Positions 1,451 to 31,120 of a stretch of DNA of 64,000 nt are shown here, in pieces. A program made the position numbers and the translations under genes. The notes below the pieces were generated by a model. The model was not told the origin of the DNA and searched no databases. It worked only from the letters and a program-made list of their open reading frames with translations. The DNA comes from an uncultured bacterium (lineage in GTDB: Bacteria; Patescibacteriota; Minisyncoccia; Phycocordibacterales; UBA9973). Each line of letters begins with the position of its first letter. Within the stretch, counting starts at the first letter, position 1. Location: assembly GCA_903894565.1 (NCBI GenBank), contig CAITQP010000004.1:9957-73956 (forward strand). The letters are read 5' to 3'.

Positions 1451-4400
1451 TTACTGGTTGTAAGTTGTAAGAATTGCACCAGTCTCTGCCAATGAACCAT
1501 CAAGAATGTCTGACCATGTGAAACTGGAGCCTGCTCCAAGAGTCAAGTCAACATTTCCAGATGATGTTCCACTGTTAGTTACGTTAGCGTAGAGATCAAA
1601 GAGAACTGTGTCTCCCTTTGAAATCTGGTATCCACTAGCGAATGAGAACCCAGTACCGTTTCCAGTAGGCTGTGTACCTCCGAGTGAAGTGATTGGTGTA
1701 CCGTTAACCTTAACAGTCCATCCTGCGTTTGAAGTAAGGACTGAGTAAGTAACTGGAACCGTTCCAACCAAGATGTCTCCATCATTAGCTGTGATTGCGA
1801 TTGTACCAAACTTTACGTTAGAAGTTGTACCAGTACCAACAGAAGTTGGTGAAGATGTCTTCTTAACTGTAGGTGTAGCACCAACAAGAGTGACTTGGTT
1901 TGAAGTCAATGAAGCACCGCCGTTAAAGGCTGTACCACCGTTTCCAATTGTTCTTGTGACACCACCAGCTGTGTACTTAGCCATGTAAAGATCAATAGCT
2001 GAAGTAGCACCAGAAGTAACACTTGCTGTACCTGCTGTTCCTACTGTTGAGTAAGAAACATAAGCATCAACAGTTGTACCTGTACCACCGTTAGCAACTG
2101 GAATTGCAAGGTTCTGCAACCATGCATATCCTCCAACTACAGGAGCTGAAGTTGTACCAACTTTGATAGAAGTAACAGTGTTTGCACCAGTCACATGGAA
2201 CTTGAGTTCGGTGATTGTTGCAGTTCCTGCTGTAGCGTTGAATACGAAGCGAGCCTTAGTAGCATCAGCCTTTCCGAGCGGTGAAGCAAGGTAAGAAATT
2301 GGTGTTGAGTTTGAAGTCTGGAACGTAGGTGAAGCTGCTGAGTTTGTCAAAAGTCCAGAGTTAACTGTGATTGTTTGACCAGCAACTGCTGTACCTGGAG
2401 CACCGTTCTGCTGAACCGATACGTTTGAACTAATAGCTGTAGCAACGATTGTAGAAATCATTGTCTGACTTGTATTAGAACCAGTAGTAGCAGTTAAATC
2501 GATGATCGCTGTCTGTCCTGGTGTCAACGTGAAGTCAACTGAGAAAGTATTCGTAGTTGAAGGCTGTTGAGGTGTTGTAGGAGCAAAAGCAACTGTTCCA
2601 CCGTTAAAGGTACCAGCAACCTGAAGACCTGAGAGGTCTGTCGTGAGAGCTGTACCAGCACCGATTGGGTTAACAGTAAGTGATGTTACACGTACTGAGT
2701 CAGATGAACTTGTGTTCTGGAAGACGAACGAACCAATCTTAACGTTAGTCGTATTAGGACTGACTGTCTGGTTTGAGTAGTTTCCGTTTGCAGCAACTGT
2801 AAGAGCACCAGCTTGCATAGCAAGAGTGTGTCCTGTACCTGTAGCTGGGCCTGTAGCTACAGCGTGTGAAGAGAATCCTTCACCTACGATAGCAGACAAG
2901 TTTGCAGAAACTGTACCACCTGTGTAAGCAGTACCAGTTGTGTTGCGGAGGTCAGCCTTAACTTCGATCGTACTATCCTGTCCAGCTGTGACCATCATTT
3001 GTGATCCTGGTGTGAATGGGATAGGAGTTCCTACAGTCCAATTTGCTGTACTTGCACCAATCTGTGAACCGTTGAAGAACAAAGTAACGTTCTGGAGACC
3101 AGCTGCGCCACCTGGTGTAACTGTTCCAGCAAGAACTGGAGTTACACTAAGTCCTGTTACTTTTACATCTTCGCCGTATCCGTGGATTGTGTATTTCGCG
3201 ATTGTTGCGTTTGATACACCAGCAGTAACGTTAGACAATGAATTGAATGTCGTATCGTTTGTAAGAGTGTATGAACCAGCACCAATCAAGAATGAAGCTC
3301 CAGTACTTGCTGTGAAGCCAGTGACTGCAAGGTTAACTCCAACCTGTGGATCCATGACCATAAGGTCTGAAGCCTGCTGGAGAGATACCGTGAAGGTGAA
3401 GCTTGATCCCTTTGTGATGTCAGCGCGAACTTCAAGTGTGTGTACGCCTGTTGCAAGAGAAAGTGGAGATGCTGCAAAGTTGAATGACAAGTAGTTTGAA
3501 CCACTCATCATTGTCATTGTAGCGTTGTTTCCAGCTTTGATTCCGTCAACATACAAACCAACGTTTGCCAATGCATCAGCTGGAGCTGAGCCTGAAATAC
3601 GGAAGTTTGCAGCTTTCAATGAGAGAGCGCGAGTATTCACCTGAACAGCTTGTCGCCAAACTGCGTAAGAGTTACTACCAGCATTTACAGAAACGTTTGT
3701 TCCTGTAACCTGCTGTGTTCCAGAGAGAGCCAATGAAGCGAGTGTTGATCCGCCAGCTACGTACATGTCATTTCCCTTAAGTGCTACTGCGTTAACAGAA
3801 GTACCGTTTGTGAATGAAGTAAGAGCTACGTTAACACTGTATGACTGTGTTGATGTCCATACATCCGCCATAACAGATACTGTACGTGAACCGTTAACCG
3901 CGAGGTTAAGATTGTTCATTGTAAGTGTACCTGCTGTGTTGAATGAGTAACCATCTGTGAGGCGAGTTACGCCATCATAGAGGTAAACAGCTGAAAGTGT
4001 ACTTGCATCTGAGATGCCTCCACGAGTAAGAGTAACAGAGTTAACTGTTCCTGTACCTGTGAAAGTAACGTTCAACAAGTTTGCTGTAGCCTGGCCAGCG
4101 ATAACAGTTCCTGCAGCAGGGTTGTTTGCTGAGAGAGCTGCTGTGACTGTTCCAGTCTGAGTTGTTGTACCACCTGTTGTAGTACCACCTGTTGTTGTAG
4201 TAGTTGTACTACTTGTGCATGTACTATTGAGTGATGCGCGAGTAGCAGGACCTACCATTCCTACAGCGGCGAGTTTGTTTGTTGTCTGGTAAGACATAAC
4301 AGCTGCCTTTGTCATGTTACCGAAGTAACCTGTTGCTGGCGAGATGTTAAGTGCGTTCTGAAGAGCAGTAACATCTGCGCCTTTTGAACCAACTGCGAGG

Positions 4401-5312: not shown

Positions 5313-6212
5313 CTATGACGCTATGCGATACATACTCCAACGCTTCTCCCCTTCTTTGATTAAGACACCTTCTTTGACGAGTCCGAGAAGCTCGCGCTGG
5401 ATAGTCTTGCCACTCAAATCTTTTAGAAGCGATGTGATGTCGTTGATCGATACACGACCCTTACTTCGAACGACATTAAGGACATCATTTCGGCGTGCGA
5501 TTTTCATTCCAATGTCAGATTTCTTTGGAACAATTTCTGTCCTTTCTGATGGTTCAATTTTTCGAAAAGCCTGTGCTGTATTGATTGAATTCTGTCCGTT
5601 AAAATTGTTCTGTCCTTTATCAAAATTTTCAAGCAATTTTTCGGCTGGCTCTACTTCAAACATTGAACTCGAAAGGAGGATGTTTGCGTAGCCTGGATGT
5701 GTTGAGAAAAGGACAGTCTTACCACCATAGTGATGGTCAATTTCAGTCTTCACTTTTTCAAGTTCACTGATCAAAATTTTGCCATTCATTTCGGAGATCA
5801 AACCAATGGTAGATGCAAGGTTCACAAACACAATAATTTCATCAGCATTTCTTACCACTTCATCAGCAAGTGCGTAATGTGGTTCGGTCGATCGAGCACC
5901 GATTCGGCGAGTACCGGAGACCAGCGCAAGACCAAGTGTCCGTAACTGCGAGCGAAGTGGCTCTGATTCATGGATGAAGTCCGTTACCATATAGATCGCT
6001 GTTGTGATCTTCTCTGTCTTTTTGGCAATAACGGACACCGCTAAATGCTTGTGGTAGAAGTCATTTTGGGCTTGCTGTGTATAGCTTTGTCCTTTTGAAG
6101 TATCAGTATTGTTTTGTGTGTCTTTTTGTTCCATGATTTTTGTTTGGGCAATTTTTTCAAGTTTTTTTCTCGTTAACGGACACCAGTATACGCTACGGAT
6201 TTTCTTTTGCAA
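5313..6212 (-). CDS. hypothetical protein with C-terminal winged-helix DNA-binding domain (putative transcriptional regulator); likely true start MEQKD at 6134
   Basis: C-terminal segment RRNDVLNVVRSKGRVSINDITSLLKDLSGKTIQRELLGLVKEGVLIKEGEKRWSMYRI looks like a wHTH; the N-terminal domain is unassigned. Confidence 0.4.
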   Translation of the reverse strand: MQKKIRSVYWCPLTRKKLEKIAQTKIMEQKDTQNNTDTSKGQSYTQQAQNDFYHKHLAVSVIAKKTEKITTAIYMVTDFIHESEPLRSQLRTLGLALVSGTRRIGARSTEPHYALADEVVRNADEIIVFVNLASTIGLISEMNGKILISELEKVKTEIDHHYGGKTVLFSTHPGYANILLSSSMFEVEPAEKLLENFDKGQNNFNGQNSINTAQAFRKIEPSERTEIVPKKSDIGMKIARRNDVLNVVRSKGRVSINDITSLLKDLSGKTIQRELLGLVKEGVLIKEGEKRWSMYRIAS

Positions 6213-26040: not shown

Positions 26041-26645
26041 ATTGATACTTTCTTTTCTCCTGTCTGAAGGCGCTCAATGCCTTCTACCAAATCAATATCG
26101 AGACGCACGGCTCGCTCGCCGAGTGCACGAGCAGTTGCAGCCGCGAGGTACAATTCGTCGCGGTCAAACACAATATTCATATCGGTGTGTCCGACTTCTA
26201 TATTTTTTGAATTAAATACATCAAATTCGAATCCAGCAGTTTGGATTGTTTGATACATACGATGTGCGGTGTCAGCAACATCCATTAGATTCCTGTGTAT
26301 CAAAAGTGATTCTTCGAGAAGTTTCGTTCGAACACCTTGATCAGGACCGAGTTTCGGATTTTTGAGTTTGATAGTGCCATTGAGTGCATCATCAGAAAGT
26401 GTCAACATTTTACTCAAATCGCCAAAACTCCCCGCCGTCGGCATTGGTGGAACAACCAATCCATTCGGCAAACTCAAAAAATCTGCCTCCAAATAATCGG
26501 GACATGATGGAATAGACAGTCCTAAATCACGGCGAAATCCTTTGACAGCCGAGAGGAAAAATTCGGTCATGTCAGACACTTTGGTGAGGTGATCTTGTTC
26601 AAGCGCTTTGCCTTCGTTCATGCGATCCGAAAAATCTTCTTTCAT
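26037..26645 (-). CDS. hypothetical protein
   Basis: ORF tightly packed (4-nt overlaps) in the operon; no recognised motif. Confidence 0.35.
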   Translation of the reverse strand: MKEDFSDRMNEGKALEQDHLTKVSDMTEFFLSAVKGFRRDLGLSIPSCPDYLEADFLSLPNGLVVPPMPTAGSFGDLSKMLTLSDDALNGTIKLKNPKLGPDQGVRTKLLEESLLIHRNLMDVADTAHRMYQTIQTAGFEFDVFNSKNIEVGHTDMNIVFDRDELYLAAATARALGERAVRLDIDLVEGIERLQTGEKKVSI

Positions 26646-27268
26646 TCCTCTATTGTACCAGAAAAAAATCCGAGAATACCACTCTCGAGCTCGGCAACTG
26701 ATTCAACGAAAAGAAAGGGTTTTGCGTCAGCCAGTGTGTTGCGACTTTGAAATCCCCACGTCACGGCAATCGAAGAAACACCACACTCATGCGCCTCATA
26801 CACATCGCCGCTCGTATCGGTAATGAATATCGTTTGGTTTGGCTCTACTCCATATTGGTCGAGCATCATTTTGATACGGACAACTTTACTCGAATCTACG
26901 TCGTAGCCAAGTACATCAGAGAAACAATCAGCTACGCCTTCGCGCTCGATGATATCTTTGATCGTTGATGTTTGTGAACCAGAAATAATTGCAAGTGTAA
27001 ATCGCGCCGAGAGTCGCTTGAGTAACTCACGAATATTTTCTGGCACTACAAGCGTGCGTGTCTCCTCTTTATATCGTCCGTGGAAATCTGGATGAAGTTT
27101 TGGCGCAACCATATTTTTGACTGCCTCAGAAATATTTCCATTAAACAACTGCTGATACTCAGGGAGTGATATTTCACTGTTAACCTCAGTCGTAATCCCA
27201 TACGAAATACCGAGCGTATCAACAATGACGCCGTCGAAATCGAACATGATGAGCGGTTTCTCTTGCAT
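26642..27268 (-). CDS. HAD-family hydrolase (PGP/PpaX-like)
   Basis: Motif I MFDFDGVIVDT. Confidence 0.75.
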   Translation of the reverse strand: MQEKPLIMFDFDGVIVDTLGISYGITTEVNSEISLPEYQQLFNGNISEAVKNMVAPKLHPDFHGRYKEETRTLVVPENIRELLKRLSARFTLAIISGSQTSTIKDIIEREGVADCFSDVLGYDVDSSKVVRIKMMLDQYGVEPNQTIFITDTSGDVYEAHECGVSSIAVTWGFQSRNTLADAKPFLFVESVAELESGILGFFSGTIEE

Positions 27269-27269
27269 G

Positions 27270-30200
27270 CTATTTCAAAACACGAGCAAGCACGGTCGCT
27301 CCCGCGACCTCTATCGCCTCTCCGTTCTCGAGTGAATCAACAAACACAATCTCGCGAGTAAGCACAGTCTTTTTCATTTCCGTTTCAAATGAAGCAACAA
27401 TATCTTTTGCATTCATCGAGAGCGTGAGCGTCACCACGTCGCTTGGTGTGAGTCCTTCTTTCTTGCGCAAATCCTGTACACCACGTACGAGCTCGCGGTA
27501 TTCACCTTCAAGTTTTAACACTGGGGTTATAACAGTATCAAGTTCTTGCTTTATTTCTTTTCCAACTGTAAATACAATCTCCTTTACATTTAACTCATCC
27601 TGGGCAATTTTTTTGTAATCATCAGACAAGTTGAGATCAAGAATAGAGAAAACTGAAAATTTTTGAAGTGGCTGTCGAACTTTTATACCCGCTCTCTGGC
27701 GTTCTTCAAGGCCAAGCGTAACAACCTGACGAAGATGTTTCATTTTTTCAATACTATGTAAGTTAAACTCGCTCGATGTTGGCCATTCAGTCAAATGCAC
27801 AGAACTAGCACTGTCTCCATGCTTCAAGCGTTGCCAAATATCTTCGGCGGTAAATGGTGCGAACGGTGCAAGCAATTTCGCGACTGTCGTAAACACAACA
27901 TACAATGTTTTCTTTGCATCGGTTTCGCCATCCTTGATGCGTTCGCGTGAGCGACGCAGGTACCATGTCGAAAGATCATCAACAAACAAATCGAATGGTC
28001 GTGTTGATTCAGTCATATCATATGCCTCCATGCCCTTCGTCACGTCAGCGACCAATTCGCCGAGACGTGAAAGGATCCACACATCGAGTACATTTTTTGC
28101 TTCAAACGAACCAATATCTTTCTCAAGATCCATATCGCGATAGAGCTCGTAGAATGTGAGCACATTTTGCAATCGGCCGATGAGTTTCGAAGCAATATCT
28201 TGCACAGCTTTTTCAGAGAAGTTTGCATCTTCACCTTTCATGAGTGGACTCGACATGAGGTACAAACGAAGTGGGTCTACGCCATATTTGTTGAACAATA
28301 TCCACGGGTCAGGATAATTGCCTTTTGACTTTGACATTTTTTGTCCGTCTTCGGCGAGTAATGTTCCTGTCGTCACGACATGCTTGAATGGTGCCGCGTC
28401 AAAAAGAATCGTCGAAACTGCATGAGTGTAATAGAACCACGTACGTGTTTGAGCAATATATTCAGCAACAAATCCTGCAGGGAAATTTTCTGTCTGCCAG
28501 TTTGGTCGCTCGAACGGATAATGATCTTGCGCGAACGGCATTGAGCCAGATTCAAACCAACAGTCGATGACTTCACTGATACGCGTGTAGAGAGTCCCTG
28601 CTTCATCAACAAGTTTGATCGAGTCAATATATGGTCGGTGCAAATCGAGTTCGTAACTCGCGTTGTGTGGGAGCGGCACGAATGCAAGCTCGCGCACTTC
28701 ACCAGGCTGAATGCGTTTCAAATTGAATACATCAAAGAGAATTTCGAGTGAGCGCGCATTGTCCGCACCTTGAATAAGCGCAGCGGTCGTTTCAAAGAAA
28801 ATGCCGTGCGTTACGATCAGAATTGTTTCATTCGCATACTTCGATTCAAGTTCGTAGAGGAAATCACCAAAACGTTTTTTGGTTTCGAGCAGTGACGACG
28901 CACCGAGTGGTTCGGTATAATCTTTCACATTGTTCTTACGATAGTCGATGAATTCCTGAAATGGTTTTCCATTCCATTCACCAAAATCATATTCGCGAAG
29001 TCGCTCGTCAGTCACGATATCTTCACGTGCGATACCAAGAATATCTGCAACGATTTGTGCAGTCTCTTGTGTTCGAACGAGTGGTGAGGCAAAAATCTTT
29101 GTGACCTTACGCGCCTTCAATTCTTCGGCGCGACTTGTGGCCTCGTTTCTTCCCTGCTCGGTGAGTGGGTACGTATCATTCTCGAGACTCGCCATGACTT
29201 GTGCCACCATATGTTCGGCATGACCATGACGCATTGCGAGATACGTGTTGCCAGATTTTTTGGTCTTGGATTTTAAGTCTTCAACCGATGAGACAAACAA
29301 GAATTTTCCTTCGTTAGACTTCCAAAATGGAAGCGGGCTTGCCCAGTAACGATTGCGTGAGATGTTCCAATCTGGCGCAGATTCCATTGTATTCTTGAAG
29401 CGACCTTCTTTGAGGTGTTCAGGAATCCATGCCATATCTTTGGCAGTCTCAAGCATGCGCGCTTTGGCCTTTTGAATATTCACAAACCAACTTGGCAATG
29501 CGTAATAGAAAAGTGGAGTCTCACAGCGATAACAGTGCGGATATGAGTGCATGATCTTTTCTTTTTTAAAGAGAAGACCTTTGGCCGCGAGATATTTGAT
29601 GATCTCAATATCTGCTTTCATGTGACCATCTTTTTCTGCCGATTTTGGCTTGATCGCCATACCTGCGAAGTCGGTGACCTCCGGAGCGAACTTCCCTTCT
29701 GGCGTGACGTGCACGATGAATGGAATATTTTCTTTCTGGGCGAGTGTGGCATCATCTTCACCAAAGGCTGGTGCTTCGTGTGCGATACCAGTACCGTCAG
29801 TCGTTGTTACGAAATCTGCCGCGACAACGGTCCACGATTTTGGATTCGCGAGGAGCGCCTCACCTTTTGTATAGTAATCAAATGGTGGTGTATATTTTTT
29901 GCCGATGAGTGCTGTGCCAGAAAATTCTTCCACAATCTCAAACGGCTTTTCTTTGAGCACTGCTTCTGCGCGATCCTTTGCGAGCACGTATGATTTGCCA
30001 CTTGAATCACCCGCGATTTTGACTTTGACATAGCGCGCCTCAGCATTGACTGCAAGTACGATGTCTCCCGGGAGCGACCACGGTGTCGTCGTCCATCCGA
30101 TCAAATTCACATTTGGATCTTCCACGAGTGGAAAATTTACGTAGACAGAAATATCAGCAATGTCCTTGTAACTATTGTCCATCGCAATTTCAGATTTTGC

Positions 30201-30764
30201 GATTGGTGTCTCACAGCGCGGACAATATGCGAGCACGCGCACACCTTCATAGATGAGACCTTTTTTGTTGAGTTCGCCAAGCGACCACCAAACACTTTCG
30301 ATGAAACTATTGTCCATCGTCTTGTATGAACCATCAAAATCTACCCAGCGACCAATGCGCTCGACAGTGCGCTTCCAATCGTGCACATACGTGAGCACTT
30401 TGCTTCGTGCATGTTCGACGAATTTTTCTACGCCGAGTGCTTCGATTTCTTTGTGACCAGAGAGTCCCAAATCTTTTTCAACGATGTTTTCAATCGGCAA
30501 TCCGTGACAATCCCATCCCCAGCGGCGTGGCACGCGAAAACCCTGCATCGTTTGGTAACGACCAATTACATCTTTGGCCGTTGAACCGAGAATATGTCCG
30601 TAGTGCGGAAGTCCGGTCGCGAACGGCGGACCATCGTAGAAAACGTAGTTCCCTTTTGGCGCGTCTTTGGTGAGCGACTTTTCAAACGTCTTGTTGTCGC
30701 GCCAAAATTGCATGATCTTTTCTTCTTTTTCTGCGGCTGGGGATTTTTTGATTTCTTCGGACAT
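27270..30764 (-). CDS. ileS: isoleucyl-tRNA synthetase (type 2) carrying an in-frame ~200-aa histidine-phosphatase (PGAM-family) domain insertion
   Basis: GPPFATGLPHYGHIL (HIGH), GWTTTPWSLP (CP1 editing domain), ISRNRYWASPLPFW, LDLHRPYID, KMSKSKGN. Between PLPFW and LDLHRPYID sit RHGHAEH...TEQGRNEA...VTHG motifs. Confidence 0.85.
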   Translation of the reverse strand: MSEEIKKSPAAEKEEKIMQFWRDNKTFEKSLTKDAPKGNYVFYDGPPFATGLPHYGHILGSTAKDVIGRYQTMQGFRVPRRWGWDCHGLPIENIVEKDLGLSGHKEIEALGVEKFVEHARSKVLTYVHDWKRTVERIGRWVDFDGSYKTMDNSFIESVWWSLGELNKKGLIYEGVRVLAYCPRCETPIAKSEIAMDNSYKDIADISVYVNFPLVEDPNVNLIGWTTTPWSLPGDIVLAVNAEARYVKVKIAGDSSGKSYVLAKDRAEAVLKEKPFEIVEEFSGTALIGKKYTPPFDYYTKGEALLANPKSWTVVAADFVTTTDGTGIAHEAPAFGEDDATLAQKENIPFIVHVTPEGKFAPEVTDFAGMAIKPKSAEKDGHMKADIEIIKYLAAKGLLFKKEKIMHSYPHCYRCETPLFYYALPSWFVNIQKAKARMLETAKDMAWIPEHLKEGRFKNTMESAPDWNISRNRYWASPLPFWKSNEGKFLFVSSVEDLKSKTKKSGNTYLAMRHGHAEHMVAQVMASLENDTYPLTEQGRNEATSRAEELKARKVTKIFASPLVRTQETAQIVADILGIAREDIVTDERLREYDFGEWNGKPFQEFIDYRKNNVKDYTEPLGASSLLETKKRFGDFLYELESKYANETILIVTHGIFFETTAALIQGADNARSLEILFDVFNLKRIQPGEVRELAFVPLPHNASYELDLHRPYIDSIKLVDEAGTLYTRISEVIDCWFESGSMPFAQDHYPFERPNWQTENFPAGFVAEYIAQTRTWFYYTHAVSTILFDAAPFKHVVTTGTLLAEDGQKMSKSKGNYPDPWILFNKYGVDPLRLYLMSSPLMKGEDANFSEKAVQDIASKLIGRLQNVLTFYELYRDMDLEKDIGSFEAKNVLDVWILSRLGELVADVTKGMEAYDMTESTRPFDLFVDDLSTWYLRRSRERIKDGETDAKKTLYVVFTTVAKLLAPFAPFTAEDIWQRLKHGDSASSVHLTEWPTSSEFNLHSIEKMKHLRQVVTLGLEERQRAGIKVRQPLQKFSVFSILDLNLSDDYKKIAQDELNVKEIVFTVGKEIKQELDTVITPVLKLEGEYRELVRGVQDLRKKEGLTPSDVVTLTLSMNAKDIVASFETEMKKTVLTREIVFVDSLENGEAIEVAGATVLARVLK

Positions 30765-30780
30765 ATATTTTGATTGCTAT

Positions 30781-31120
30781 CGTTAATAATTGATCGTAAT
30801 GGGTAAATAAAAAACTCGTCTCCGTACAGCAGAATTCTGCCATACAAGGACGAGCTTTCAATCGCATCGTGGTACCACCTTGCTTCCCCTTTCGGGCTTA
30901 TTTATGAGTCTGTGACGGGACATCCCGCTAGGGTCTATATCCGCATATCAGGCGAATTTCTTCCTAGAAGCTCCGAGGTGATGGCCTCATCAACGCTTGT
31001 AATCACAGATTACCACAGCAACATTGACTAATCAAATAAAGGAGAGTAGTTTTATTTATAAGGAATGTTCTTCTAATTACAAAGCGTCTGTCGGACAGAG
31101 AAATGCCGTGATAATAAGAT
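30781..31120 (-). ncRNA. T-box riboswitch leader upstream of ileS
   Basis: The minus-strand RNA carries AAGCAAGGUGGUACCACG, matching the T-box consensus AANNNGGGUGGNACCGCG. Its UGGU bulge is complementary to an ACCA 3' end. A terminator (cucguc...gacgag UUUUUU) follows. Confidence 0.6.

Follow-up and report, generated by a model that had tools for sequence, protein, structure and literature searches.

A predicted histidine phosphatase domain, probably exchanged as a cassette, nested in the isoleucyl-tRNA synthetase of a Patescibacteria genome

A 64,000-nucleotide stretch of an uncultured bacterium of the Patescibacteriota (GenBank assembly GCA_903894565.1, contig CAITQP010000004.1, positions 9,957 to 73,956; hereafter the window) contains an isoleucyl-tRNA synthetase (IleRS) gene, ileS, whose single open reading frame (ORF) of 1164 amino acids (aa) also includes a domain resembling small histidine phosphatases. 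An earlier reading of the letters, referred to here as the original prediction, had described a normal type-2 IleRS with a HIGH motif, a connective peptide 1 (CP1) editing domain and a KMSKS motif, interrupted between two of its conserved blocks by a domain of the phosphoglycerate mutase (PGAM) family. The features of the gene and of the place where the domain sits are given below in window coordinates.

27270..30764, minus strand: ileS, type-2 IleRS of 1164 aa with the nested phosphatase domain (ORF, hidden Markov models (HMMs), AlphaFold2 (AF2))
30594..30605, minus strand: HIGH motif, HYGH, aa 54-57 (neighbouring residues invariant in an alignment of relatives, A2)
29250..29363, minus strand: CP2-3 linker and N-terminal half of CP3, aa 468-505, made up of ISRNRYWASPLPFW (aa 468-481), a hairpin remnant and the junction DLKSKTKKSGN (equivalence to the yeast linker; entropy 0.64 bits)
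28668..29249, minus strand: histidine phosphatase (PGAM-like, branch 1) domain, aa 506-699, a putatively exchangeable cassette (PF00300, AF2, Foldseek, discordant phylogeny)
28617..28670, minus strand: C-side junction PHNASYELDLHRPYIDSI, aa 699-716, leading back to CP3 and the Rossmann fold (entropy 0.68 bits; common to all cassette types)
28326..28340, minus strand: KMSKS motif, aa 809-813 (K809, S811 and K812 invariant in alignment A2)

The synthetase itself is of the kind that the original prediction had named. Its ORF scored 832 bits against the NCBIfam ileS equivalog TIGR00392 (cutoff, 621.4), and Pfam recognized tRNA-synt_1 (split in two), Anticodon_1 and a C-terminal DUF5915. The CP1 region matches the editing domains of solved IleRS structures and contains the editing motifs WTTTPW and GTG-H-P-G-DD, of which W224-T227, P228, G324, G326, H329 and D338 are invariant in alignment A2. 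A full-length AF2 model was confident, the insert included (predicted local distance difference test (pLDDT), 89.2; predicted template modelling score (pTM), 0.82), and Foldseek aligned it with the type-2 structures 8c8v and 1ile (target-based template modelling score (TMt) of 0.83 and 0.92, respectively), none of its matches having the insert. With phmmer, the window protein matched type-2 IleRS at E=8e-211; the closest proteins in both sequence and fold were IleRS2 and the yeast and Thermus enzymes, with the type-1 structures 1ffy and 8c9e much lower. The likeness to the bacterial type-2 enzymes of the eukaryote-like, mupirocin-resistant type (Priestia megaterium, 8c8u and 8c8v; Thermus thermophilus, 1ile) extends over the entire body, from the Rossmann fold and CP1 to CP3 to the anticodon-binding domain and a DUF5915-type C terminus. 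The IleRS body is intact, and purifying selection on it is very strong.

The HIGH, KMSKS and editing-site motifs are preserved here and conserved in relatives, and a T-box leader lies upstream, in keeping with the earlier claim that this is the working ileS of the cell. We assign the gene housekeeping status because its Ile-specific T-box is conserved and its locus is syntenic with those of relatives, which supports its being the working, T-box-regulated type-2 IleRS of a Nomurabacteria-like bacterium of the Candidate Phyla Radiation (CPR); the search for a second ileS covered the 64-kb window.

Within this synthetase, the interrupting domain had been placed at 28650..29255 (aa ~504-705) and credited with the signature motifs of histidine phosphatases, and both statements proved accurate. 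Pfam family PF00300 (His_Phos_1) matched aa 511-675 at E=1.1e-29 and 104 bits (gathering score, 21.7), inside the split tRNA-synt_1 match, and RHGHAEH, TEQGRNEA and VTHG lie at aa 512-518, 535-542 and 651-654. Excised from the synthetase, the insert was modelled by AF2 as a PGAM domain with high confidence (pLDDT, 93.7; pTM, 0.91), so that the HMM search and the structure prediction that had been proposed as checks agreed. Foldseek returned small histidine phosphatases with probability 1.00, TM scores of 0.69-0.76 and 22-26% identity, among them PspA, Entamoeba histolytica PSP, PhoE/YhfR, the riboflavin-pathway HFP and the glucosyl-3-phosphoglycerate phosphatase Rv2419c. Like the insert, PhoE/YhfR (1h2e, 1ebb), PspA (4ij5), HFP (9mmh) and Rv2419c (4qih) have this fold, a length of ~200 aa, the RHG histidine, two arginines, a glutamate and a second histidine; unlike it, they are free-standing, whereas the window domain is nested in a synthetase and has methionine in place of the pocket asparagine.

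Stand-alone homologs of the insert also exist (~190-200 aa, 38-44% identity; for example, P0006 and P0131), with the same motifs, and are plausible donors of the insert. Phages, too, appear to encode related small histidine phosphatases, as the phage family phrog_12933, whose function is not annotated, matched aa 506-699 at E=1.4e-22.

The reading frame runs uninterrupted through both junctions in one 1164-aa ORF, as had been claimed. An intein was considered and rejected, again in line with the original prediction: Pfam found no Hint or intein family, the fold is that of PGAM and the junctions have no nucleophile, despite an 'HN' (PLPHN) at the C-junction. The residue following PLPHN is Ala in the window and mostly Glu, Asp or Ala in relatives, and there is no conserved N-terminal nucleophile.

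Where the domain sits could be read from known structures. The window segment APDWNISRNRYWAS is the counterpart of the 'CP2-3 linker' of yeast IleRS, 453-ARDWNVSRNRYWG-465, and the block LDLHRPYIDSI that follows the insert lies at aa 706-716. In the yeast enzyme, the CP2-3 linker lines the pocket of the tRNA CCA end (A76) and of reveromycin A, and CP3 follows with residues 459-526 (PMC7955072). CP3 is a small peripheral subdomain whose topology varies among IleRSs and which has a Zn motif in T. thermophilus (PMC7191050); in human IARS1, it acts as a protein-protein interface (PMC13439101). Compared with P. megaterium IleRS2 (8c8u), ~200 residues of the window protein stand where there are ~10.

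The remains of the Zn-knuckle frame the insert. In the consensus of relatives, W-C--C stands ahead of the insert and L-C--CG behind it, and 28 of 121 close sequences have Cys at each of three tallied positions, the rest at none, which suggests that the loss was coordinated. In the window, all four Zn-knuckle cysteines are replaced (WKSNEGK, aa 482-492, 29289..29321, minus strand; LVDEAGT, aa 719-725, 28590..28610, minus strand), unlike in T. thermophilus IleRS, which keeps them. Thus, of the earlier claim that the phosphatase is inserted inside the catalytic core, the nesting in IleRS stood and the core location did not: by the linker and Zn-knuckle equivalences, the domain is nested at the tip of the CP3 (Zn-knuckle) hairpin, beside the active-site core and not within it. 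An enzyme domain of ~195 aa in CP3 is found in none of the solved or described IleRSs.

The same architecture is found well beyond the window. A phmmer search of 1.84 billion cluster representatives with aa 468-716 (the insert and both IleRS flanks) as the query yielded 76 proteins with E<=1e-30 and 669 with E<=1e-10, with most of the top 150 aligned over the entire query; full-length matches were 1127-1200 aa long with the insert at the matching place. Using our own HMM and IleRS landmarks, we counted at least 78 representatives of 50%-identity clusters with the domain between ISR-R-W and HRPYID. The survey of ileS orthologs that had been proposed found the same insertion in 120 of the 120 closest full-length relatives (57-94% identity), in which PF00133 and PF00300 were already precomputed. 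These came from ENA, JGI, NCBI and Logan assemblies, some of them on contigs of 200-719 kb, and their database names were just 'class I tRNA ligase family protein', 'isoleucyl-tRNA synthetase' or 'hypothetical protein'.

In a taxonomic survey with one representative genome per GTDB species, loci matching both flanks and the insert were found in Nomurabacteria (the closest, 65%), Paceibacteria, Yanofskybacteria, Wolfebacteria, Spechtbacterales and Peregrinibacteria/Peribacteria. Full-coverage loci outside Patescibacteria/CPR labels came from three metagenome-assembled genomes, with several more from unclassified bacteria. A Saccharimonadales locus matched the N-terminal flank alone (query residues 1-33), as expected of an insert-free IleRS. 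The nested architecture is old in Patescibacteria and widespread among them.

A chimeric assembly or fusion artefact at 28650 or 29255, which the original prediction had argued against, can be set aside as vanishingly improbable, since the architecture recurs in hundreds of independent assemblies (31-94% identity) and in a syntenic ortholog, base composition is smooth at both insert junctions and the junction motifs are conserved. The contig of that ortholog (P0161) is fully syntenic with the window, in the order argS, ileS-PGAM, HAD, a gene labelled unknown, Ser_hydrolase, RecO and DUF11.

We assessed the catalytic residues of the insert in two sets, comprising 76 divergent single-insert relatives (31-49% identity to the window) and 121 closer sequences. 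The positions concerned are as follows, with conservation given for the two sets in that order.

29226..29231, minus strand: R512-H513 of RHG, H513 being the predicted phospho-accepting His (76/76 and 121/121)
29208..29210, minus strand: M519, which replaces the usual Asn of RHGxxxxN (Asn in 63/76 and 103/121; Met in 16/121)
29073..29075, minus strand: R564, phosphate-pocket Arg (76/76 and 121/121)
28992..28994, minus strand: E591, predicted general acid (73/76, with Asp in three, and 121/121)
28806..28808, minus strand: H653, second catalytic His, of VTHG (76/76 and 121/121)

The invariance of these residues at insert identities of only 25-45% strongly argues for selection on catalysis, and the insert is very probably an active enzyme, as predicted from these residues. 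The phosphate-pocket Asn of RHGxxxxN is the exception in the window, where it is Met519. Methionine at this position always co-occurred with E623S (Ser for the Glu of GGES), a combination that we call the HM/SS type and that was found in 16 of the 121 closer sequences, the window included. The pocket Asn is not universal in the histidine phosphatase superfamily, so its loss does not exclude membership.

The insert and the rest of the synthetase differ in their relationships. Four relatives (P0160, P0161, P0165 and P0170) have an IleRS core 93-97% identical to that of the window and an insert just 33-47% identical; in P0162-P0169 and P0180-P0184, the cores are more distant, the inserts are 57-64% identical to that of the window and the HM/SS sub-type is held in common. 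Mean identity was 0.40 for the insert versus 0.81-0.86 for the Rossmann halves. A low identity of the insert does not in itself demonstrate exchange, since even the conserved core approaches synonymous saturation (third-position identity of ~0.5) and weak constraint could suffice; we therefore relied on tests of topology.

In 30 bootstrapped four-taxon tests of the body, the window was grouped with relatives of the canonical type in 73-100 of 100 replicates (at least 95 in 28 of the 30); with the insert, the same 30 quartets grouped it with HM-type relatives in 97-100 of 100. A region-by-region control on seven quartets localized the discordance, as the PGAM domain flipped the topology at 95-100% in six of the seven, the last giving no resolution. 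The control regions (the N-terminal Rossmann half (Ros-N), CP1, CP2, the C-terminal Rossmann half (Ros-C), the anticodon-binding domain and the C-terminal domain) gave the host topology in 32 of 36 comparisons, about two-thirds of them at 88% or more. The remaining four comprised two splits and two clear discordances (Ros-N in one quartet, the C-terminal domain in another).

Pairwise identities gave a similar picture. At 80-90% body identity, inserts ranged from 28% to 93% identical (median, 41%), whereas the C-terminal domain, which evolves similarly fast, tracked the body with medians of 0.46, 0.50, 0.54, 0.67 and 0.90 over body-identity bins. Spearman correlation between body and insert identity was 0.16, but that of the C-terminal control just 0.30; because the radiation is star-like and the control equally low, this statistic is uninformative alone and we relied on the binned medians. 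For 37% of sequences, the nearest neighbour of the insert ranked below tenth in body similarity. In one case (P0193), the body neighbour was 82% identical in the body and 33% in the insert, and the insert neighbour 73% and 74%, respectively. Clustering at 50% identity yielded 21 clusters of inserts versus one of bodies.

The breakpoints of exchange coincide with the conserved junctions DLKSKTKKSGN-Y (0.64 bits) and PLPHN--YELDLHRPYID (0.68 bits). Within the domain, entropy was highest in the loop following RHG (2.86 bits), the cap (2.63 bits) and the helices after the second His (2.6-2.8 bits) and low in the catalytic strands (1.1-1.2 bits). Loop and cap regions shape the substrate pocket in this superfamily, and hypervariability thus appears to be concentrated in the predicted recognition surfaces. 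From the topologies and identities, the insert appears to be a semi-autonomous cassette that is replaced between lineages independently of the host gene, replacement being, on these sequences, a more parsimonious account than mass reversion to the canonical type or convergence to 60% identity.

A separate change of identity was seen in the closest relative (P0158, locus L084), which matches the window at 98-100% identity for the first ~850 aa but falls to 84% in the anticodon-binding domain and to 75% in the C-terminal domain (27270..28200, minus strand, aa ~855-1164). The drop suggests a second recombination breakpoint within ileS, unrelated to the phosphatase cassette.

Among relatives, Pfam and landmark mapping placed phosphatase domains at three sites of IleRS, in proteins that reach 1379-1468 aa where the domains are in tandem or at alternative sites.

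Site A: the CP3 site, as in the window; mostly a single copy, with tandem pairs in P0080, P0087, P0117 and P0147
Site B: between WFESG and DQTRGWF (after WFESGSMPYA); P0060 and P0127
Site C: between KMSKS and the anticodon-binding domain; P0060, P0121, P0127, P0141 and P0150

A protein resembling valyl-tRNA synthetase (ValRS; P0040) carries four His_Phos_1 copies at two sites, one ahead of CISRQIWWGHRIP and three in tandem behind it, all of which keep those catalytic motifs that could be read from sequence, and PF00133 and PF00300 are combined in a few additional ValRS fragments (P0279-P0281), so that the phenomenon is not confined to IleRS. Copies cluster, weakly, by site or position across proteins and not within one protein, and are therefore not recent internal duplications. 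Physical linkage to a class Ia synthetase would thus seem to have been selected repeatedly, and the exact geometry not.

Two further observations concern these relatives. An IleRS-PGAM protein of 1323 aa (P0275, locus L085, 1810..5781) shows weak similarity to the HD domain (PF01966, E=8e-7) in an extension at its C terminus that takes the place of part of DUF5915, a single case that could reflect gene fusion or read-through. Six very short class I synthetase fragments of 137-270 aa (P0280, P0285, P0286, P0290, P0293 and P0301) lie on contigs of 80-230 kb; ValRS genes in some such genomes may be split, frameshifted, interrupted or written in another genetic code.

That the domain moves horizontally, settles at several permissive surface sites and evolves far faster than its host (mean identity of 0.40 versus 0.81-0.86) would also be expected of a non-catalytic passenger, either a selfish or neutral insertion that is hard to excise precisely or a structural substitute for the CP3 Zn-knuckle, whose cysteines at the base of the insert are lost in most close relatives and in the window. 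We consider this very unlikely, given five catalytic residues that are invariant or nearly so in ~195 sequences with inserts as little as 25-45% identical, and kept in the P0040 tandem copies as well, together with stand-alone homologs that have the same motifs.

We therefore prefer to read the gene as encoding a polypeptide of two enzymes, a working, T-box-regulated IleRS and a complete small histidine phosphatase (aa ~506-699) nested at the tip of CP3 and exchanged as a cassette, and we regard this as likely. Histidine phosphatases act through a phospho-His intermediate, with Glu as the general acid. By the same chemistry, the insert would be an active phosphomonoesterase using a phospho-His513 intermediate and E591 as general acid. 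Since it is tolerated at several sites and in varying numbers of copies, it would also be a tethered module in need of proximity to the synthetase and not of a fixed geometry.

As for its substrate, we lean, tentatively and with less than even confidence, towards a small phosphorylated metabolite or nucleotide, because the closest structures and HMMs are of the PspA, PhoE, HFP, GpgP and CobC type, because stand-alone homologs exist and because the inserts are acidic (mean net charge of -6 and range of -15 to +4 across inserts; -8 in the window).

Several points weigh against the two-enzyme reading and the role in small-molecule metabolism attached to it. The insert stayed below every NCBIfam equivalog cutoff concerned: dPGM_arch (85 versus 225 bits), CobC alpha-ribazole phosphatase (72 versus 163), PspA (54 versus 350), GpmB (43.5 versus 261) and SixA (34.7 versus 74.5), so homology assigns no specific substrate. 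The window copy departs from the consensus at N519M and E623S, and the activity of its type could be changed or lowered. Given the synonymous saturation, weak constraint accounts for some of the low identity among inserts, and long-branch artefacts are to some degree a risk when quartets are built from distances in a domain that evolves fast. Lastly, a small-molecule role explains neither the repeated nesting in class Ia synthetases, in place of a separate gene or a terminal fusion, nor the hypervariable, exchanged recognition surfaces.

Nesting and diversification are both explained by two other roles, in which the phosphatase takes part in a molecular conflict. In the first, a tethered phosphatase would clear A76 of a 2'/3'-phosphate or (pyro)phosphate, and tRNA that a nuclease or a toxSAS-type toxin had blocked could then be charged. 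The synthetase would provide the binding of tRNA, and all that the phosphatase would have to do is reach the CCA end. The insertion directly after the CP2-3 linker, which lines the A76 pocket, fits such tRNA 3'-end repair, as does the specific association of the domain, at more than one site and copy number, with class Ia synthetases, which bind tRNA; its hypervariable, exchanged surfaces would suit an arms race. There is also precedent in toxSAS pyrophosphorylation and its hydrolase antidotes: tRNA with a pyrophosphorylated CCA end cannot be charged until a dedicated hydrolase, in some cases encoded by a phage, removes the modification. The role is nonetheless an unlikely one, because no histidine phosphatase acting on RNA ends is among the closest structural and HMM relatives, the inserts are acidic on average, which is unexpected of an RNA-contacting module, and site C is located where the anticodon-binding domain begins, a long way from the acceptor end in class I synthetases. 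PADLOC-DB matched no defence family (0) for the insert and the two downstream genes, which also counts against it.

In the second, the domain would be a built-in protein phosphatase that dephosphorylates the synthetase itself or a partner and so counters inactivation by a kinase. The kinase toxins HipA and HipT phosphorylate the class I synthetases GltX and TrpS, and the superfamily includes SixA, a weak NCBIfam match of the insert, albeit one far below its cutoff (34.7 versus 74.5 bits). Varied sites and copy numbers on one polypeptide would suit an enzyme acting in cis or on a neighbour, and diversifying surfaces around conserved chemistry would suit a conflict with an evolving protein partner. 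Yet the closest relatives of the insert are small-molecule phosphatases, and no such kinases were seen in the window or in those neighbourhoods of relatives that were viewed, which makes this role improbable as well.

A more general form of the conflict reading takes the nested phosphatase as a fast-diversifying counter-measure cassette, embedded by CPR bacteria in essential class Ia synthetases (IleRS and at times ValRS, at times in several copies), that erases phosphorylation attacks on charging, whether on (pyro)phosphorylated CCA ends or on the synthetase, with lineages trading alleles through recombination at the conserved junctions. This is a speculative and distinctly improbable proposal; if true, it would amount to a novel form of 'immunity built into a housekeeping enzyme'.

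How far the architecture is new depends on what is compared. A literature search returned no account of IleRS, or of another synthetase, with a histidine phosphatase domain, and the domain-superfamily table of AARS Online contains no histidine phosphatase domain. The earlier statement that the domain is not a described feature of IleRS is therefore right for the literature searched but not for public databases, which hold hundreds of such sequences with the Pfam architecture precomputed. Judging by family names, NCBIfam has two partial precedents, an IleRS with an unrelated enzyme domain (NF040702, isoleucine--tRNA ligase, N-acetyltransferase domain-containing) and a PGAM-type phosphatase joined to an enzyme that acts on nucleic acids (NF005567, bifunctional RNase H/acid phosphatase of the Rv2228c type). 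The window protein belongs to neither, being far below both cutoffs (318 versus 1999 bits and 83 versus 326 bits, respectively), and CP3 nesting, multiple sites and cassette exchange are, to our knowledge, not features of those families. Both parent families are well known; what appears not to have been described is how the domain is nested, that it occurs at more than one site and in more than one copy, and that it is exchanged like a cassette.

Few enzymes are as conserved or as thoroughly studied as the aminoacyl-tRNA synthetases, and their accessory domains have repeatedly revealed new biology, including editing, signalling and resistance. Here, part of an essential gene would evolve as a mobile, hypervariable unit, in a design common to a large part of the CPR and hundreds of uncultured relatives. 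The insert offers a handle on CPR physiology, namely which phosphorylated molecule matters beside tRNA charging, and a natural example of permissive sites for domain insertion in a class I synthetase. The findings also account for the downgraded annotation of these genes as 'class I tRNA ligase family protein' and for the failure of default thresholds to detect the T-box.

That T-box leader is atypical, and its parts are as follows.

30809..31002, minus strand: atypical ileS T-box leader (sub-threshold RF00230 match, fold, conservation)
30975..30988, minus strand: specifier AUC-A in the hairpin loop of a truncated Stem I, a GAGG-CCAUCA-CCUC hairpin (Ile codon and the usual purine)
~30868..30882, minus strand: T-box sequence AAGGUGGUACCACG (UGGU bulge complementary to ACCA)
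30809..30858, minus strand: terminator hairpin and U-run, U6 (RNAfold)

At the Rfam gathering score, neither the window nor any of 11 related loci gave a T-box match. A permissive scan gave 44.1 bits for RF00230 (gathering score, 93) with a local E=1.7e-8, the match spanning the full model but with 6 nt in place of 76 positions of Stem I, so that a full-length Stem I with a distal platform is absent. The leader, terminator hairpin included, folds with z=-3.4; a simple terminator scan missed this hairpin, probably because its stem and loop exceed the limits of the scan, but RNAfold shows it. The same leader precedes ileS in the syntenic loci L084 (45 bits, 2750..2922) and L081 (34 bits, 5826..5950), and across the three orthologous leaders the T-box sequence AAGGUGGUACCACG is invariant (3/3), AUC-A lies in a hairpin loop of 6-7 nt (3/3) and the terminator is kept with a compensatory change. 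Hence, the T-box of the original prediction is present, with specifier, T-box sequence and terminator conserved, but it is not canonical. Nor is it universal, since it is missing from L001, the closest relative in GTDB, where the gap ahead of ileS is just 47 nt.

The leader resembles those of actinobacterial ileS genes, which have a shortened Stem I and which we take to be comparable. Like the window leader, they presumably present an AUC specifier in a truncated Stem I without a distal platform and pair UGGU with the NCCA end. The window leader differs from the actinobacterial type in having an intrinsic terminator as its expression platform, a CPR host and a score below the Rfam gathering threshold.

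Around ileS, a gene for a HAD_2-family hydrolase (26642..27268, minus strand) overlaps ileS at its stop codon, and the two are presumably transcribed together downstream of the T-box. The hydrolase gene is kept in the syntenic locus L081 (9485..10120) and absent from the closer L084, and L085 has a gene of the metallo-beta-lactamase fold in its place. Directly upstream of ileS lies a normal arginyl-tRNA synthetase (ArgRS) gene, and a scan of the other large ORFs of the window for more insert-bearing synthetases returned just this ArgRS. ARAGORN detected no tRNA or tmRNA in the 64 kb, and no Rfam family reached its gathering score there. The window also encodes FtsK and several large, apparently surface-associated proteins, of 1067 aa (PG_binding_1), 1007 aa (PhoD_N/fn3), 900 aa (Big_9), 748 aa (BNR/Fn3) and 647 aa (DUF11).

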